Shown here one piece after another: positions 17,112 to 37,845 of a stretch of DNA of 64,000 nt (position 1 is the stretch's first letter; each line of letters starts with the position of its first letter). This DNA comes from a virus (lineage: Duplodnaviria > Heunggongvirae > Uroviricota > Caudoviricetes): the IMG/VR virus record IMGVR_UViG_2526164662_000021, positions 32,574 to 96,573 of that record; one strand, given 5' to 3'. A program made the translations under genes and the position numbers. A model generated the notes under the pieces. It saw only the letters and a program-made list of their open reading frames with translations, was not told the origin of the DNA and ran no database searches.

Positions 17112-17621
17112 TTAATCCCAATCAATCCAGTTGTAGACGATACGAAGTGACGGGCGCACAGCGGCAGTCACATCTTCGGTACTAAAGTCGATTGCATCAC
17201 TGTAGATTTTGCAGTCCAACATTTCAATTGTTGTAGCAGCTTTTGTCACAGCGTTAACCCCGGAAGATTTGGATTCAGGGGTCGCAGCCATCGTGATATC
17301 AACATAGTCCTTCGCCGCAATGCGATCCTTAATGAACTGAAGAATATCACCTTCGATAGTCTCCACGCACTGGACCTGGATTTCCCCAGAGTTTCGAATT
17401 GGACCGTGCTGGTTGAACTTCACACCATTCGGACCATAGTCCTCCACATCCTCGCGGGTCATTTCAGGGATTTGCGACGTGCGAACCAGTACGCTGATAT
17501 CTTCATGGCCAGCAAAAGTGAGCTGGAATTCAGAAGATACCAGTCGTTCACCTTTGGCCGCGTTGGCAGTATAGCGGCCCTTAATAAATTTACGGTTTCC
17601 CTTAGTGTTATTGTGCCCCAT
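17112..17621 (-). CDS. late structural protein, 169 aa (last gene of head/tail late operon)
   Basis: ORF track; terminator hairpin at about 17070-17095 downstream. Confidence 0.55.
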   Translation of the reverse strand: MGHNNTKGNRKFIKGRYTANAAKGERLVSSEFQLTFAGHEDISVLVRTSQIPEMTREDVEDYGPNGVKFNQHGPIRNSGEIQVQCVETIEGDILQFIKDRIAAKDYVDITMAATPESKSSGVNAVTKAATTIEMLDCKIYSDAIDFSTEDVTAAVRPSLRIVYNWIDWD

Positions 17622-30826: not shown

Positions 30827-33087
30827 AAGAGCTGTGCTATGGATCTGTTTGCAGTGGAATTGAAGCCGCGAGTATTGCCTGGGAACCGTTGGGTATGCGT
30901 CCGGCGTGGTTTGCTGAAATCGAGCCTTTTCCATCTGCCGTTCTTGCGCACCGCTGGCCCCATGTCGCCAACCTTGGCGACATGACAAAACTTGCCAAAA
31001 AAGTCCTGGCTGGGGAAATCGAATCCCCTGATGTGCTCGTCGGGGGAACACCTTGTCAGGCATTCAGTATCGCTGGATTACGTGGTGGGCTTGATGATGA
31101 GCGTGGCGCGCTAACTTTAAAGTATGTGGAGCTTGCAAATGCAATTGACGACAAACGGGCTGAGTCATTTCTCAAACCGACAGTTATCGTCTGGGAAAAT
31201 GTCCCAGGAGTCCTGTCATCGGCAGATAACGCCTTCGGATGTTTCCTTGCCGGATTGGCTGGAGAAGATGCGCCATTTGAACCAGGTGATCGACCTGAAT
31301 CAGGAAAAAGTAACGCGTTCTGGCGGTGGGATGGCAAAACCGGTTGCCATGCTCCAAAGTGGCCGCAGTGTGGTTGTATTTATGGACCGCAGCGAAAGGT
31401 GGCCTGGAGAATCCTTGATGCCCAATACTTCGGAGTGGCACAACGACGCCGACGCGTGTTTGTTGTCGCAAGTGCTCGAACAGACCTCGATCCCGCAACG
31501 GTACTTTTTGAGTTCGAAGGCGTGCGCCGGAATATTGCGCCGAGCCGAAAAAAGAAGGAAATCGCTTCCGCCATTATTGCAAATGGCGCTGCAATCAGTG
31601 GCGAAAGCCTAAATCCATGCCTACACGCTGACATGCCACCCGGTATGAAATCGACGAAAGCCGTAAACGCTTTCAGGATGGCAGCATTTGGGGAATATAT
31701 TGACGATGAAACCGCATCGACAGTAAAGGCAAGAGATTTTAAAGATGCCACTGACCTTGCCGTTTTTAGCAGCACAGGAGCAGGTTTTTGGTCAGAAGGG
31801 CATGGTACATTGCGGGCACGTGAGCAAGAAAGCCATGAGCATCTTGTTACATTGGCTTTTCCTGAGCGTATGAGCGGTACACAACATGCTGCAACTAAGA
31901 ATACTTCACCATCTCTGATGGCTAAAAATCCAACAGCTGTTTGCTATGAAGTAAGAAACGCAGAAGTAGCTGTCCGCCGTCTTACCCCTGTCGAATGTGA
32001 AAGGCTGCAAGGTTTTCCTGATGGGCATACGTTGATCCCGACGGAAAAGCGTAAAAAAGTTAATTCAGATGAACTGGCATATCTTCGCAATCACTATCCA
32101 GATTTAAGCGAAGAAGAGGCCGCGATGCTTGCAGCTGACGGACCGCGTTACAAAGCGATCGGCAATAGTATGGCAATACCAGTAATGCGCTGGATTGGCG
32201 ATCGGATTACTAAGGCCGTATGTCGGCAGAAAGAAGGAAGTGAAACAAAAGAGCGAAAAGTTAAACCAGCGGCAGAATTCGAACGGTCCATATTCAAATG
32301 GGCTGGTGGAAAATTTGGTGTTCTGGAACAAATCTTTCGCTATTTGCCAGAAGGGAAGCGCCTGATCGAACCTTTTGTCGGTGGCGGAGCTGTCTTCACG
32401 AATGCCGGATACCAGGAAAATCTGCTAAATGATGTGAATGCTGACCTGATTAACTTTTACAAGACTCTGCAACGCGAGGCGCATTCACTTATCACACTGG
32501 CGCATCGGTTTTTCCAGGACTACAACACACAGGAAGGATACCTGGCAGTACGGAATGCGTTTAACAAACAAGTCTATGATGATTTACATCGCGCAGCGGC
32601 GTTTTTGTTCCTGAACCGACATTGTTTTAACGGATTGACGCGTTACAACCAGGCCGGTGAGTTCAATGTCGGTTATGGGAAGTATAAAACTCCGTATTTC
32701 CCATTACAGGAGATGGAAGCCTTCCTCGGTGCGGAAGGGCGTTCTGAGTTTGTATGTGGTGATTTTGCTGCGGTGATTGAAGCTGCCGGAGAAGGAGATG
32801 TCATCTTCTGTGATCCGCCGTATGAACCGCTTCCAAATACAGAGGGATTCACGAACTATTCCGGTCATGACTTTAAGTTTGAAGAGCAAAAACGCCTGGT
32901 GTCTCTGTTGACGGATGCTCATCGCCGAGGTGCAAAGGTTCTCATTACTAACAGTGGCGCGCCAAACATCAGAGAGCTTTATCATGACAATGGCTTCAGA
33001 GTGGAACCTCTTTTTGCCAGACGTTCTGTGTCTTGTAAGGGGGACACTCGAGGTGTTGCTCATGACGTCTTAGGCATATTGCTCTAA
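30823..33087 (+). CDS. dmt: bifunctional DNA methyltransferase (N-terminal C5-cytosine-like, C-terminal Dam-like N6-adenine), 754 aa
   Basis: N-half motifs [11 protein letters not shown] and ENVPG; C-half FVGGGAVF and CDPPY. Confidence 0.85.
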
Positions 33088-33094
33088 TAAATTT
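33078..33094 (+). promoter_or_regulatory. C1 operator (perfect consensus) with overlapping inverted partial copy at 33089-33105
   Basis: ATTGCTCTAATAAATTT; adjacent ATTTATTAGTGTAAT. Confidence 0.65.
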
Positions 33095-33474
33095 ATTAGT
33101 GTAATATCGTCTCAATGAATCGTGATTTATAGAGCGATTTAGCTGTTAGCCGCGACAGGCGCGGCGGTAAGCATGGCTGGGCCTAGTCCTCCCAGACAAA
33201 CCACCGAGTTGCCAGGTTGACCATGCGCCTAAGTGGCAACGCCGAAGTGCGTTACGAGCTTCCAGTTTGCCCATCTTCGGGTGGGCGTTTTTTTCAGGGT
33301 TTTCGTCATGGTTAGCGACTTTGCGGCGGTTTAGAAACTGACCATTAAAGTAAATGCAAACGATGATCTGATGATGGTAGCGGCCTAAGAAGCCAGACGC
33401 CACGGGGTATGAGTCGTCCCCCGTCAAAAAATCGACCGCAGAGTGTCCCCGTCTGTGTATTAGGGAACGGGGAG

Positions 33475-33700
33475 GCACAACAGGTAAGGGCGCTGGTGTG
33501 ATTAACCAGATGAACGAGAAGGGGCCATCTGTTGGTCAGCGTCCTTTCCTGTTGCGTCTTCTTTTCAGCGTAACAGCGGTGCTTAACAGCACTTTGGGTA
33601 CAGTTCCACGAATTTACGGGTATATCCCGTCATGCTGAAAGCGCTAATCACGCTGGAAGCCAGGGTTATGCATCCCCTGTTACCGAATTGCAGCCAGGGC
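33475..33700 (+). ncRNA. candidate structured RNA in ORF-free region upstream of tRNA-Asn
   Basis: No convincing ORF over about 660 bp; multiple local stems (CTGGT/ACCAG, CAGATG/CATCTG, CAGCGT/ACGCTG, GTGCT/AGCAC); starts with the CAACAGGTAAG motif shared by the hairpin family. Confidence 0.3.
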
Positions 33701-33759
33701 GCGGTGCGCCGAAAAGCATACGGAGGTGGAAGCCCTCGCCGGAGACGTACCCGGCAAGT

Positions 33760-33835
33760 GATGGTGTAGCTCAGCGGTTAGAGCGGTTGACTGTTAATCA
33801 ACGGGTCGATGGTTCAAATCCATCCACCATCGCCA
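33760..33835 (+). tRNA. tRNA-Asn (anticodon GTT)
   Basis: Hand-folded cloverleaf: acceptor GATGGTG/CACCATC, D-arm GCTC/GAGC, anticodon loop CTGTTAA, T-loop TTCAAAT, CCA end. Confidence 0.85.
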
Positions 33836-33837
33836 AT

Positions 33838-33913
33838 GCCGGTTTAGCTCAGTTGGTAGAGCGCCTGCCTTGTAAGCAGGATGTCAGCGGTTCGAGTCCG
33901 TTAACCGGCACCA
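33838..33913 (+). tRNA. tRNA-Thr (anticodon TGT)
   Basis: Acceptor GCCGGTT/AACCGGC, anticodon loop CTTGTAA, T-arm GGTTCGAGTCC, CCA end. Confidence 0.85.
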
Positions 33914-33916
33914 ACA

Positions 33917-34010
33917 CAACAGGTAAGGGTATTTTGCGACGTCGGAGATCGCCGTGCTTGGCAGAGGGTTCGAATCCCTACGAAGTACCCTTACCGTTGT
34001 GATGAAGTGC
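33917..34010 (+). repeat. hairpin-family element copy (tRNA-like T-arm GGTTCGAATCC inside a 10-bp stem)
   Basis: GGTAAGGGTA ... TACCCTTACC stem; ends with CCGTTGTGATGAAGTGC. Confidence 0.4.
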
Positions 34011-34138
34011 AGCTCTTAGAAGCAACCAGAAGATAAGCATCTGGCTTCACAACATAAACCGCAGGAACGACCAATAAACGGTAGTCCGTATGGAGAACAC
34101 CCCGTTGAGGAAGAGGCCTGGCCGGAACCGTAACCGGC

Positions 34139-34245
34139 ACTACAACGTTGAGAACACTGGCGTAACGGGGTCATATCCCAATCTACGAATAAATGTTGCG
34201 TTGCAGCGTGACAACCAGTGTTCTCAACGTTGTGGTGAATGCACA
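34139..34245 (+). repeat. hairpin-family element copy
   Basis: Perfect 16-bp stem ACGTTGAGAACACTGG / CCAGTGTTCTCAACGT enclosing CGTAACGGGGTCATATCCCAATCTAC; ends CGTTGTGGTGAATGC. Confidence 0.45.
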
Positions 34246-34350
34246 GGCTGATGTGCCGCAACTACAGTAGTGCGCGCTTTGCGGGGCTTGCTACAACCCT
34301 GTGTCGGAGTTCAGCACCGACCATCACAATTTATTTAGAAACTGTCACCC

Positions 34351-34764
34351 ATGAGTGCGAGAACGGTAATTATGCAGAAAGAGCAGTTTGTTATTTCTTT
34401 AGTGGTTAGCACCAGTTATCAGGTCGATAAAGTTTCGAAAGAAGATGCATCTGAAATTGATGTTGTAGATGTGTTCGGTAACGAACTCAAAATACCACTT
34501 CGTGAATTTAATGAAATAGCAGCTCCGTTGGGCAAAATTGACGGCTTGGAGGAATACCACAAGCGAATGATTATCGAACGTGCTCAGCTATGCCAGCGCA
34601 TAAATAAGCTTGTTCGATTCATTGGAACAGATAAATTCCTCACTATAGACCAGTGCAAGCAGTTGGATTTGGAAATTCAGCTCGGAAGCATGATTGATTA
34701 TCGAAAAGCTCTTGATGCTCGCTTGGTCCAATTAACCAAAAACTATCCGTCAGCAAGCAGCTAA
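34351..34764 (+). CDS. hypothetical protein, 137 aa, bracketed by two hairpin-family copies
   Basis: ORF track. Confidence 0.45.
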   Translation: MSARTVIMQKEQFVISLVVSTSYQVDKVSKEDASEIDVVDVFGNELKIPLREFNEIAAPLGKIDGLEEYHKRMIIERAQLCQRINKLVRFIGTDKFLTIDQCKQLDLEIQLGSMIDYRKALDARLVQLTKNYPSASS

Positions 34765-34813
34765 TTATAAATTTGGGGCGGATGGTTAGTCCGCCGTTAA
34801 CTCCATGAAACGG

Positions 34814-34905
34814 AGTACGCAACAGGTAAGAGCATTCTCCTGTAACGGGTTCATATCCCAATCTACAGGTCCACCAAGAATGCTCTTTCCGTTGCGGTGA
34901 ATGCG
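34814..34905 (+). repeat. hairpin-family element copy
   Basis: Stem GTAAGAGCATTCT / AGAATGCTCTT enclosing CTGTAACGGGTTCATATCCCAATCTAC; ends CCGTTGCGGTGAATGC; stem differs from the 34139 copy while loop is conserved. Confidence 0.45.
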
Positions 34906-35046
34906 GCTAAGCGCACGCGGGGAAATGGTTATATCAGTCCATTCATTTCTCCTTGTTTCCCCGTCCACGGTGGATAACCAGCCAAAGGACACCGGGAGGC
35001 ACCCAGCACCGCAGCTTTTTTATTCGTTAAATAATGGAGTGAGAGG

Positions 35047-35283
35047 ATGCAGAACAATCCGAACAAATGTCGAACGCTATGGGTGCGGTTATATATTTAT
35101 GCCGTCCTCTGTTTGATTGTGTCACTGGTTCTGTATGTTTGGCTTTTGCCAAATATGATCTCATCTAACAGCACAATACTTGTATTGTTGGGAGTCCTTC
35201 TTGCGCTCATTTACCCGGCTTTCGCAGTAGTCTTTTTTCGTGAAAAAACCAGGAAATTAATTAATGAAAAAAACGTTGATTAG
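35047..35283 (+). CDS. small two-TM membrane protein, 78 aa
   Basis: Two hydrophobic segments. Confidence 0.45.
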   Translation: MQNNPNKCRTLWVRLYIYAVLCLIVSLVLYVWLLPNMISSNSTILVLLGVLLALIYPAFAVVFFREKTRKLINEKNVD

Positions 35284-36091
35284 TGCAGCGATTATTTTGG
35301 GTTCTTTATGCCTGACCGGATGCGATCGGGTAGAGCCAGGTAACGTAGGGATCAAAGTAAATAAGCTGGGGGATGATAAAGGTATCGGTGAAGTAGTTGG
35401 CGTTGGTCGCTACTGGACAGGCTTGAATACTGAAGTTTATATCTTCCCGACCTTTAAGCAAATGAAGACATACGATGAGCCGTTCAGCTTCCAGATGAGC
35501 GACGGAACAACCATTGGTTACCACATCGGCGTAGCCTACAAGGTTGATCCAGCAAAAGTCACAACGGTATTTCAGACCTATCGCAAAGGTGTAGATGATA
35601 TTACTGATACCGATCTACGCCAGAAGGTTGCAGATGCTCTGAACCGGTTAGCCAGCAAAATGACCACCGACAAATTTATCGACGGTGGCAAATCTGAATT
35701 GCTTGATGCAGCCCTTAAAGACATTCAGGAAGAAATGACGCCAATCGGCATTCAGGTGATGAGCCTCTCTTATGTAGGTAAGCCAGAATACCCGCCAACA
35801 GTTATTGACAGTATTAACGCCAAAGTCACGGCAAACCAAAAAACCCTGCAACGCGAGCAAGAGGTCAAACAACGTGAAGCAGAGGCCAACATGCTGCGCG
35901 CGGAAGCTGCCGGACAGGCTGATGCTATTCGCACAAAAGCCCAGGCCGAAGCTGATGCCATTCGTTTACGTGGTGAAGCTCTGCGCCAGAACCCCGGTGT
36001 TATGGAGTTGGAAGCGATCAACAAATGGAACGGTACATTACCGCAGTATATGACCAGTAATGCCGCTGTTCCGTTTGTTCCGGTGAAATAA
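35264..36091 (+). CDS. lipoprotein with SPFH/band-7-like domain (Plp-like), 275 aa
   Basis: Lipobox LCLTGC after signal peptide. Confidence 0.65.
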   Translation: MKKTLISAAIILGSLCLTGCDRVEPGNVGIKVNKLGDDKGIGEVVGVGRYWTGLNTEVYIFPTFKQMKTYDEPFSFQMSDGTTIGYHIGVAYKVDPAKVTTVFQTYRKGVDDITDTDLRQKVADALNRLASKMTTDKFIDGGKSELLDAALKDIQEEMTPIGIQVMSLSYVGKPEYPPTVIDSINAKVTANQKTLQREQEVKQREAEANMLRAEAAGQADAIRTKAQAEADAIRLRGEALRQNPGVMELEAINKWNGTLPQYMTSNAAVPFVPVK

Positions 36092-36118
36092 AAGCGTAAG
36101 CAAAATTGGCAGTAATCC

Positions 36119-36194
36119 GGCCCTTTAGCTCAGTGGTTAGAGCTGGCGACTCATAATCGCACGGTCACCGGTTCAAGTCCGGTAGGGGCCACCA
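36119..36194 (+). tRNA. tRNA with anticodon CAT (Ile2 or Met)
   Basis: Acceptor GGCCCTT/AGGGGCC, D-arm GCTC/GAGC, anticodon loop CTCATAA, T-arm ACCGGTTCAAGTCCGGT, CCA end. Confidence 0.8.
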
Positions 36195-36474
36195 TATTTG
36201 GTTGTAACACGGCGTCTGGCACATGCGTCGTTAGCGGTCTGGTGACGTTAAAAGGGGGGAACCTTGCCCCTAGCTCAGGCAACGAACCAGGTAGCCGGAA
36301 TGTGCAAGCCACCGTTTGTTGTTTCTCGGGTAAAGGGATTCACCATCCTGGCGATTCGGTGTGACAGCCGGGAAGAGTCCGGCGCATTAATCCTGATTTT
36401 CTGGTGATGACTCATATCGTTAGGAGTGATTTGAGTATGCCGATTATATCTGACATTCAGCACGCCTGGGTGGA

Positions 36475-37845
36475 GTGCTAATGTCTGCATCCCCTCTTGA
36501 ATCCATGCCAAATTCCCTTAGTGCAGAACAAGCTGTACTTGGTGGCTTAATGCTTGATAACTGCCGCTGGGATGAAGTTGCAGATCGTATAGTTGCTGAT
36601 GATTTTTATACCAGTGCTCATCGTGAAATTTTCAGTGAGATGGAGAGGTTATTAAGTCATGGCAAACCGATTGATTTGATAACACTTGCTGAAGCACTTG
36701 AACAGAACGGTAAATTAGAACGCGCCGGTGGTTTTGCGTACCTTGCGGAGATGTCAAAGAACACGCCCAGCGCGGCAAATATTTGTGCTTATGCGGATAT
36801 CGTTCGTGAACGCGCGGTTGTTCGTGAAATGATTTCCGTCGCAAATGAAATAGCCGAAGCTGGATATGCGCAGGATGGCAGGGGCAGCAATGAATTGCTG
36901 GATATGGCCGAGCGCCGCGTTTTTGAAATAGCTGAAAAACGACAAAAGAGCGGTAGTGGTCCAAAAGATATCGCCAGCATTCTCGATGCAACGGTATCTC
37001 GCATAGAAGAGTTGTTTCAGCGACCACATGATGGTGTAACGGGGCTTGATACGGGATTTACCGATCTCAATAAGAAGACGGCAGGGCTTCAGCCGTCCGA
37101 TCTCATCATTGTCGCCGCCCGCCCATCTATGGGGAAGACCACGTTTGCGATGAATCTCGTCGAAAATGCCGCAGTCCGTAACTATAAGCCCGTATTGGTT
37201 TTTAGCCTTGAGATGCCGAGCCACCAGCTGATGATGCGCTCACTGGCTTCTCTTGCACGCGTTGATCAGACTCGTATTCGAACAGGGCAACTTAACGACG
37301 AGGATTGGGCGCGGGTTTCTGGCGCAATGGGTATTCTGTTGGACAAGCAGAATATTTTTATTGATGACTCAAGCGCCCTGACGCCGACAGAGCTACGTTC
37401 CCGCGCTCGTCGTGTTTATAAAGAAAATGGTGGTTTGAGCATGATTATGATCGACTACCTGCAACTTATGAGCGTCCCCGAGCTGCAAGATAACCGAACG
37501 CTGGAAATTGCCGAGATTTCTCGCTCACTGAAGGCGTTGGCGAAGGAATTACAAGTACCGGTGGTGGCATTGTCACAACTTAATCGATCGCTTGAACAGC
37601 GTGCGGACAAACGACCGGTAAATTCAGATTTACGTGAATCAGGAGCAATTGAGCAGGACGCAGACCTGATCATGTTTCTGTATCGCGACGAAGTTTATCA
37701 CCCGGATAGCGAAATGAAGGGCATTGCCGAGGTAATTATCGGAAAGCAACGAAATGGCCCAATTGGCACGGTGAGATTGGCTTTTAACGGCCAATACTCA
37801 CGGTTTGATAACTATGCTGGTGCTGACTGGCAAGAGGATTATTAA
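36475..37845 (+). CDS. ban: replicative DNA helicase, DnaB family (Ban-like), 456 aa
   Basis: Walker A ARPSMGKTTFAMN; DnaB-like N- and C-terminal regions. Confidence 0.9.
   Translation: MLMSASPLESMPNSLSAEQAVLGGLMLDNCRWDEVADRIVADDFYTSAHREIFSEMERLLSHGKPIDLITLAEALEQNGKLERAGGFAYLAEMSKNTPSAANICAYADIVRERAVVREMISVANEIAEAGYAQDGRGSNELLDMAERRVFEIAEKRQKSGSGPKDIASILDATVSRIEELFQRPHDGVTGLDTGFTDLNKKTAGLQPSDLIIVAARPSMGKTTFAMNLVENAAVRNYKPVLVFSLEMPSHQLMMRSLASLARVDQTRIRTGQLNDEDWARVSGAMGILLDKQNIFIDDSSALTPTELRSRARRVYKENGGLSMIMIDYLQLMSVPELQDNRTLEIAEISRSLKALAKELQVPVVALSQLNRSLEQRADKRPVNSDLRESGAIEQDADLIMFLYRDEVYHPDSEMKGIAEVIIGKQRNGPIGTVRLAFNGQYSRFDNYAGADWQEDY

Follow-up and report, generated by a model that had tools for sequence, protein, structure and literature searches.

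The ban-operon leader of a P1-like phage-plasmid occupies positions 33000-36600 of the DNA analysed here, a 64,000-nucleotide window (positions 32,574 to 96,573 of the IMG/VR virus record IMGVR_UViG_2526164662_000021). Within it we found four long hairpins (H1-1 to H1-4), all in the plus orientation, which is the direction of the ban promoter. The transcript that carries the downstream elements starts at the Op72/Pban operator and promoter site (33076-33107), and the four hairpins are probably RNase III processing sites on a long transcript running from there to ban (36475); judging from sequence, we put the probability of this at about 0.65. The hairpins are listed below with the minimum free energy of the fold, its z-score relative to dinucleotide shuffles, and the scores on the plus and minus strands of R1, a covariance model built on the hairpin family.

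33476..33556, plus strand: hairpin H1-1; fold -47.8 kcal/mol, z -5.3; R1 49.9 bits (plus), 30 bits (minus)
33915..34001, plus strand: hairpin H1-2; fold -42.1 kcal/mol, z -4.6; R1 59.8 bits (plus), 30.8 bits (minus)
34138..34237, plus strand: hairpin H1-3; fold -55.0 kcal/mol, z -7.0; R1 55.0 bits (plus), 34.3 bits (minus)
34818..34896, plus strand: hairpin H1-4; fold -37.0 kcal/mol, z -4.8; R1 75.5 bits (plus), 32.8 bits (minus)

The Pban transcript would carry a DicF-like small RNA (sRNA), tRNA-Asn, tRNA-Thr, structured non-coding domains, open reading frames (ORFs) that we call cargo, tRNA-Ile (CAT) and ban. RNase III would cut each stem in its 3' arm, at or beside the mismatch. What lies upstream (the tRNA pair, or a domain resembling an sRNA) would be parted in this way from the unit downstream, and each piece would acquire a separate end and stability. 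Once released by the cut, GUUGYG of the 3' arm could re-pair with a downstream CRCAAC and close an adjacent domain, termed D2. The cuts are predicted to fall in the 3' arms at ~33544-33549 (H1-1), ~33990-33995 (H1-2), ~34223-34228 (H1-3) and ~34875-34880 (H1-4). It is from homology and pairing that we infer cleavage by RNase III in P1, the positions of the cuts and the refolding step.

Structure and distribution of the hairpin family

The stems of the four hairpins are 18-27 bp long, interrupted by no more than a single bulge and a single mismatch, and their folds are much more stable than those of shuffled sequences. That of H1-3 is a perfect 23 bp without a bulge (an inverted repeat of 23 nt, 96% complementary). 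Exact matches to CAACAGGTAAG, from the 5' end of the hairpin, and to CGTTGYGRTGAA, from the 3' end, numbered three each in the 64 kb, all at hairpins; with one mismatch there were six matches to CAACAGGTAAG and six to CGTTGYGRTGAA, compared to 0.8 and 1.1 expected, respectively. A search of the window with R1 returned exactly the four hairpin sites, at 50-76 bits on the plus and 30-34 bits on the minus strand, a gain of 15-43 bits per hairpin. Sequence, folding and R1 thus bear out the four elements that the first-pass annotation had placed near 33476, 33917, 34139 and 34814. The common ends ascribed to them were found in part: the 5' motif is present in copy 1, but the GRTGAAKGC tail is not, and this copy ends in CCTGTTGCGTCTTCTTTTCAGC.

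Copies 3 and 4 had been said to carry one loop on differing stems, and a 25-nt loop motif (34162-34186 and 34842-34866) is indeed 96% identical between them while the stems differ. The covariation argued from this pair holds, and it applies across the family as a whole. In 35 distinct family sequences, pairing was observed in 93.8% of cells and compensatory changes in 8 of 19 pairs; none of 500 shuffles reached the observed values for pairing or compensation, and sliding the partner columns gave a pairing of 37-59%. G·U pairs outnumbered A·C pairs by 45 to 5 (108 to 18 in a larger alignment), and the ratio in the reverse orientation was 5:38. The hairpin was on the strand of the neighbouring tRNA in 129 of 134 pairs, the five exceptions being one near-symmetric variant of copy 1; 12 hairpins start no more than 8 nt from a tRNA 3' end, and two end no more than 8 nt before a tRNA 5' end. 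These compensatory changes, the G·U excess and the co-orientation with tRNAs point to an RNA-level structure, and the preference for G·U over A·C, together with the R1 scores and their gain on the plus strand, indicates that the structure is selected on the transcribed strand. A smaller hairpin, ACGGG(U)(K)(C)AUAUCCC(GU), was seen at 33616-33630, 34164-34178 and 34844-34858, that is, in the domain past copy 1 and in the tips of copies 3 and 4, and also at the non-P1 prophage loci L005, L111 and L153.

Viral contigs were scanned for the pattern and then searched with R1, which yielded 98 hairpins at 58 loci. Their basal layout consists of 6 bp, a bulged A, 2 bp, a U·U mismatch and 10 bp, followed by a variable tip. 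The basal stem is ~95% conserved (CACAAC, the bulged A, GG, the U·U mismatch and AAGAGCAUUG, paired with CAGUGCUCUU, CC and GUUGUG), and the tips, of 30-70 nt, are mutually unrelated. Members were found in Q-to-holin late leaders, in the gap between terminase and portal genes, 3' of cI-like repressors, past a capsid gene and past the IsrJ terminator. When a single genome of each species was scanned, members turned up in prophages of Serratia, Klebsiella, Pectobacterium, Pantoea, Citrobacter, Erwinia, Brenneria, Kosakonia and others. Phage lambda has a full member (R1 70 bits), which is unannotated, at ~44,787-44,862; it begins 6 nt past the U-run of tR', upstream of gene S, has no Rfam match, and was the longest helix in an inverted-repeat scan of 44,579-45,189, which spans the late leader. 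The late regions of the K-12 prophages DLP12 and Qin contained no copy. Most members lie at loci where ARAGORN calls no tRNA, and the family is specific neither to P1 nor to the tRNA operon.

Several observations concern individual members. The sRNA IsrJ at L093 (2710-2786, minus strand; 60 bits in Rfam, above threshold) is followed by its terminator and at once by a family hairpin, an order that mirrors lambda 6S RNA and tR' with the hairpin behind them. P1-like genomes carry two to five hairpins, and chimeras occur. In phage D6 the hairpin (L003 2698-2806) encloses the sequence that follows the hairpin in lambda; at L048 (3797-3869) the 5' arm of copy 3 and the 3' arm of copy 4 are joined through the common loop motif; and at L069 (~2977-3072) copy 4 stands directly past tRNA-Thr. 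These chimeras indicate that hairpin copies recombine with each other. A lambda-type hairpin was also present in assemblies of Pseudomonas, Bradyrhizobium, Kitasatospora, Enterococcus and other unrelated taxa (L131, L132, L137, L139, L141, L143-L146, L149, L150, L154, L158, L159, L161-L163, L165, L169-L171). Since all of these are of the lambda length, 71 nt, and lie on contigs that are short, of low coverage or ~48.4 kb long, they look like lambda DNA contamination of the assemblies, and they were left out of the family distribution.

Evidence for and against RNase III processing

The link to RNase III comes from the Qin prophage, where a homologue of the hairpin lies between ydfC and dicF (L126 17169-17269, ~1,649,168-1,649,268 in NC_000913.3). 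This is the only copy found in Qin and is diverged, scoring 27.1 bits with R1 (E = 3e-5 in 217 kb, 1e-7 locally); its fold, with 7 bp, a bulged G, 2 bp, a 1x1 mismatch and at least 10 bp, has the family layout. [quoted passage not shown] Counting back 190 nt from the 3' end of dicF (17435-17440) leads to 17246-17251, within the 3' arm of the Qin hairpin (17239-17258) and at or beside its mismatch. A second RNase III cut has been reported in the Qin dicF-dicB region, giving the 3' end of the 72-nt DicF; two papers that map RNase III sites in K-12 mention DicF by citation only.

The Qin site thus shares with the window hairpins a homologous hairpin with the same succession of base, bulge, 2 bp, mismatch and 10 bp, located inside a polycistronic prophage transcript near a DicF-type sRNA and a D2-type domain. 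The leader ahead of DicF matches 33150-33240 of the window, and the dicF-dicB spacer matches 34892-35013. It differs in that its sequence is diverged, that it occurs singly and not in four copies, and that no tRNAs are nearby; moreover, the position of the Qin hairpin corresponds in P1 to the ban promoter, whereas the P1 copies lie further downstream. In lambda the basal stem is identical to that of the family and is followed by a closing helix of the D2 type, UGUGCUG with CAGCACA. The lambda hairpin, unlike those in the window, is present in one copy and belongs to the Q-antiterminated late operon, as opposed to the C1-controlled early operon of P1. A D2-type domain was located behind it at L127 1053-1147. 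RNase III sites are reportedly named, in the title of a 1988 paper (Daniels et al.), as processing sites in the lambda Q-dependent late transcript.

In phage T7, the RNase III sites R0.3 to R1.3 lie between the early genes. As proposed for the window, related hairpins there punctuate one long phage transcript, have an internal mismatch or loop by which the cut is positioned, and leave pieces that keep a stabilising structure. The T7 sites differ in being unrelated in sequence, in having short tips and in lacking any association with tRNAs or variable cargo. The window hairpins have what is typical of an RNase III stem-loop, namely a helix of about two turns (roughly at least 20 bp, small defects allowed) and a structure kept on the transcribed strand of a longer transcript. 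No sigma-70-like promoter was predicted in 33000-36500, compared to 3.7 expected in shuffles, Pban being known from annotation. The lack of a further promoter in this interval, along with four hairpins that lack a U-run, makes a single long precursor that needs cutting plausible.

A number of points weigh against RNase III processing. Cleavage is documented for Qin alone and would extend to P1 by homology, and the Qin homologue, at 27 bits, is diverged. The cut in Qin was placed from the length of the RNA, to ~±5 nt, and not from a primer-extension figure. For lambda, coincidence of the published sites with the hairpin is a prediction. Phage 933W has no hairpin although tRNAs occupy the same late-leader position, indicating that tRNA release does not require one. 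In addition, the ~95% conservation of the basal 18 bp among Enterobacterales prophages exceeds what RNase III needs. Because the enzyme requires less sequence conservation, another constraint is likely, either a protein or the alternative pairing to the downstream CRCAAC. Nor does processing by RNase III account for the hypervariable tips. The proposal that the elements are processing signals for the tRNA operon is favoured as regards processing, by the homologue of the hairpin at the Qin RNase III site, the compensatory changes and the G·U strand bias, but the elements are not specific to the tRNA operon, given the copies in lambda and in prophages without tRNAs.

Domain D2 and the variable cargo

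The 3' motif GYGRTGAA of the hairpins is the 5' strand of the closing helix of D2, an adjacent domain 60-250 nt long. An exact reverse complement of the heptamer was found downstream in 33 of 62 distinct units (3.8 expected), and the closing helix, viewed as a 9-mer (GUUGYGNNN with NNNCRCAAC), occurs in 7-8 covarying versions. The same GUUGYG forms the base of the hairpin's 3' arm, and in copy 4 both partners carry a compensating G. Since the lower stem of the hairpin and the D2 helix both use GUUGYG, they are mutually exclusive, and this competition may represent a switch or refolding after cleavage. Two such domains and the ORF between them are as follows.

34229..34336, plus strand: domain D2-3; closing helix GUUGUGGUG (34229-34237) with CAUCACAAU (~34328-34336), small hairpins inside
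34351..34764, plus strand: cargo ORF of 137 aa, from the ORF list; related to crAss001_48 of Pfam (PF21825, E = 3e-15); absent from reference P1
34891..35015, plus strand: domain D2-4, STnc100-like; closing helix GUUGCGGUG with CACCGCAGC; fold -53.3 kcal/mol, z -3.9

D2-4 is homologous to the Qin dicF-dicB spacer. It matched Rfam STnc100 (RF02076) at 30.4 bits (E = 5.7e-4) over model positions 31-147 of 206, which is below the gathering threshold of 47. The alignment (34893-35013) includes the outer helix and the CCGGGAGGCACCCGG hairpin, and such domains, like STnc100/PasD, lie near Q antiterminator and TerB-type genes in lambdoid prophages; the window hairpins, on the other hand, fall outside the aligned part of the model. 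STnc100 and PasD are described as prophage-encoded sRNAs, PasD being bound by Hfq, with seed regions that differ. The first 28 nt of the domain, TGCGGTGAATGCGGCTAAGCGCACGCGG (34893-34920), are found exactly in 2762 of 5426 complete E. coli genomes, mostly on the chromosome; no annotated feature lies under the matches listed, and in one O157:H7 strain the match is between dicF and dicB. With a piece of 28 nt carried by so many genomes, any function of this domain would be very widespread, including in prophages of pathogenic strains.

The inserts of other D2 domains vary. In L062 (624-670) and L079 (3971-4017), the middle of D2 gave a 47-nt match to small-subunit rRNA (38 bits, E = 4e-7) that resembles E. 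coli 16S rRNA around position 250 and could be a decoy or a captured fragment. True T-arm sequences were seen at a few loci only (L076, L093 and L097). A tRNA-like D2, with a 7-bp acceptor-like helix, a hairpin at the T-arm position and an ACCA-like tail, was considered and is weakened, as the closing helix is 9 bp long and absorbs the 'AC'.

An unlikely alternative is that the hairpins serve chiefly to give rise to functional small RNAs, the tip or D2 being the product, as a regulatory sRNA or as a decoy, and the stem a scaffold for its release. The tips are wholly different between phages while the stems are conserved, D2-4 resembles STnc100, some D2 inserts contain the 16S rRNA-like fragment, and some tips contain T-arm-like motifs. 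However, tips are not kept even among close relatives of P1: that of H1-2 is exchanged for unrelated sequence in L002 and L011, and that of H1-4 lacks 13 nt in L002. No tip matches an Rfam family, and a precursor role is compatible with cleavage by RNase III rather than an alternative to it. The anti-sRNAs AgvB and AsxR (Tree, 2014), considered on account of the CACAACA motif and a moron location, were set aside, since neither Rfam model gave a match and both RNAs are on the other strand.

Identity to reference P1 is 98.7% over 33000-34335, beyond which two cassettes are replaced (34336-34790 and 35014-36109). The breaks in homology, at 34335/34336 and 35013/35014, are the 3' ends of D2-3 and D2-4, indicating that a conserved unit of hairpin plus D2 precedes variable cargo. 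The first replacement brings in the 137-aa ORF; in the second, a 78-aa membrane protein and a 275-aa SPFH/Band 7 lipoprotein stand in place of tciA/B/C. That both replacements begin exactly at the 3' end of D2 supports a modular arrangement of leader plus cargo, the function of which we infer.

Fixed boundaries of this kind could also arise if the hairpins act as DNA, as linker or recombination sites for cargo exchange similar to miniature inverted-repeat transposable elements (MITEs) or integron attC sites, with RNA structure being incidental. We regard this as rather improbable. In its favour are the constant position of the two breaks relative to the units, the chimeric hairpins of D6, L048 and L069 as signs of recombination within and between copies, the occurrence of the same hairpin in many unrelated phage contexts, and an arrangement reminiscent of attC sites, with a conserved base, an extrahelical base and a tip that varies. 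The G·U bias and the strand-specific R1 scores favour selection on one transcribed strand instead, as does co-orientation with tRNAs; the cargo boundaries are at the end of D2 and not within the hairpin, and the chimeras resemble products of ordinary homologous recombination among repeats. The ends of the arms, CRCAAC and GTTGYG, do not fit the attC cores RYYYAAC and GTTRRRY: as (G/A)C(A/G)CAAC and GTTG(T/C)G(G/A), they break the consensus at the third and fifth positions. Both the attC and the MITE readings were rejected on core sequence and strand bias.

Neighbouring features and significance of the ban-operon leader

The annotation of P1 (NC_005856) places in this region the C1 operator Op72, P1ban and P2ban, a 'dicF-like region', tRNA-Asn, tRNA-Thr, the minus-strand coding sequences plp and upl, tciABC, tRNA-Ile and ban. 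The features that accompany the hairpins in the window are given below.

33076..33107, plus strand: C1 operator Op72 (Oban) with the P1ban/P2ban promoters; P1 NC_005856 annotation at the homologous position, inverted repeat
33150..33294, plus strand: DicF-like leader with an intrinsic terminator (33265-33287) and a U7 run; P1 'dicF-like region', Qin homology
33760..33835, plus strand: tRNA-Asn (GTT); ARAGORN, Rfam tRNA 74.5 bits
33838..33913, plus strand: tRNA-Thr (TGT); ARAGORN, Rfam tRNA 74.9 bits
33887-34261 and 34265-34854 of the window (P1 L001 3304-3873), minus strand: plp and upl of P1, which run antisense to hairpins 2-4 and to the 3' end of tRNA-Thr

The CCA end of tRNA-Thr is separated from the start of H1-2 by a gap of only ~3 nt, and additional tRNAs are present at the locus in P1-like relatives (Tyr in Ro157c2YLVW, Ser in D6). 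Such turnover of tRNA genes might have left decayed or cryptic tRNAs behind, and a T-arm-like motif had been noted in the copy near 33917; we found it, as GGGTTCGAATCCC, at 33956-33968, inside the tip of H1-2. Similarly, CCGGCACTA ahead of H1-3 resembles the 3' end of tRNA-Thr. That the hairpins are pseudo-tRNAs is nevertheless very improbable, and largely refuted. ARAGORN and Rfam RF00005, the latter even at E up to 10, returned only true tRNAs, the conserved part is a long stem and no cloverleaf, and most family loci are without an ARAGORN call. The suggestion of a tRNA-derived structured RNA falls for like reasons: three real tRNAs are called and no others, and the tip of copy 2 is replaced in close relatives.

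That the hairpins are ordinary rho-independent terminators is scarcely credible: a pyrimidine-rich run, UCUUCUUUUC, follows H1-1, but a terminator scan flagged none of the four, their stems far exceed terminator length, and copies 2-4 are without any U-run. On the plus strand, the scan of 33000-35100 made a single prediction, at 33265-33294. This strong terminator lies only ~190 nt past Pban and belongs to the dicF-like region, in which 33150-33240 shares homology with the leader that immediately precedes dicF in Qin, while the body (33240-33294), which carries the terminator, differs from Qin. The Rfam DicF model (RF00039) did not match 33202-33294 at E up to 10. Because a Qin-like leader here ends in a different, terminator-bearing body, the dicF-like region (33150-33294) is probably, on sequence grounds, a short DicF-type sRNA with another body and seed.

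The gene plp has an in-frame stop in the window, as well as in L002 and L011, upl is interrupted by the cassette with the 137-aa ORF, and neither has a Pfam match; for these reasons plp and upl are probably not genes. The region, described as without a convincing ORF and without an annotated RNA known in P1, does carry some annotation there: NC_005856 lists a dicF-like region, and plp and upl over copies 2-4, the latter two being doubtful. It was fair to speak of an uncharacterised non-coding RNA family insofar as Rfam, at permissive thresholds, gave no family for the four hairpins in the window, nor for the hairpins of lambda and 12 related loci. The family is absent from Rfam and wider than first thought, yet it is a known type of element.

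A structured non-coding array thus takes the place of two doubtful P1 genes, plp and upl, and the predicted cut sites suggest how the ban-operon precursor may yield tRNAs, small RNAs and mRNAs. One conserved element, missing from Rfam, ties together the RNase III site of Qin DicF, the unannotated hairpin past tR' in lambda and the P1 ban leader. We tentatively suggest, as a possibility well short of even odds, that hairpin and D2 together form a leader cassette which temperate enterobacterial phages can move and reuse, placed directly upstream of accessory (moron) genes. The middle of this scaffold would be freely exchangeable: it could harbour STnc100/PasD-type sRNA seeds, or T-arm-like or 16S rRNA-like pieces, or give way to an entire tRNA, and cutting followed by refolding would release a defined small RNA and a separately stabilised cargo mRNA. 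If true, this would be a general system by which lambda-like and P1-like phages express and shuffle accessory genes and small RNAs.

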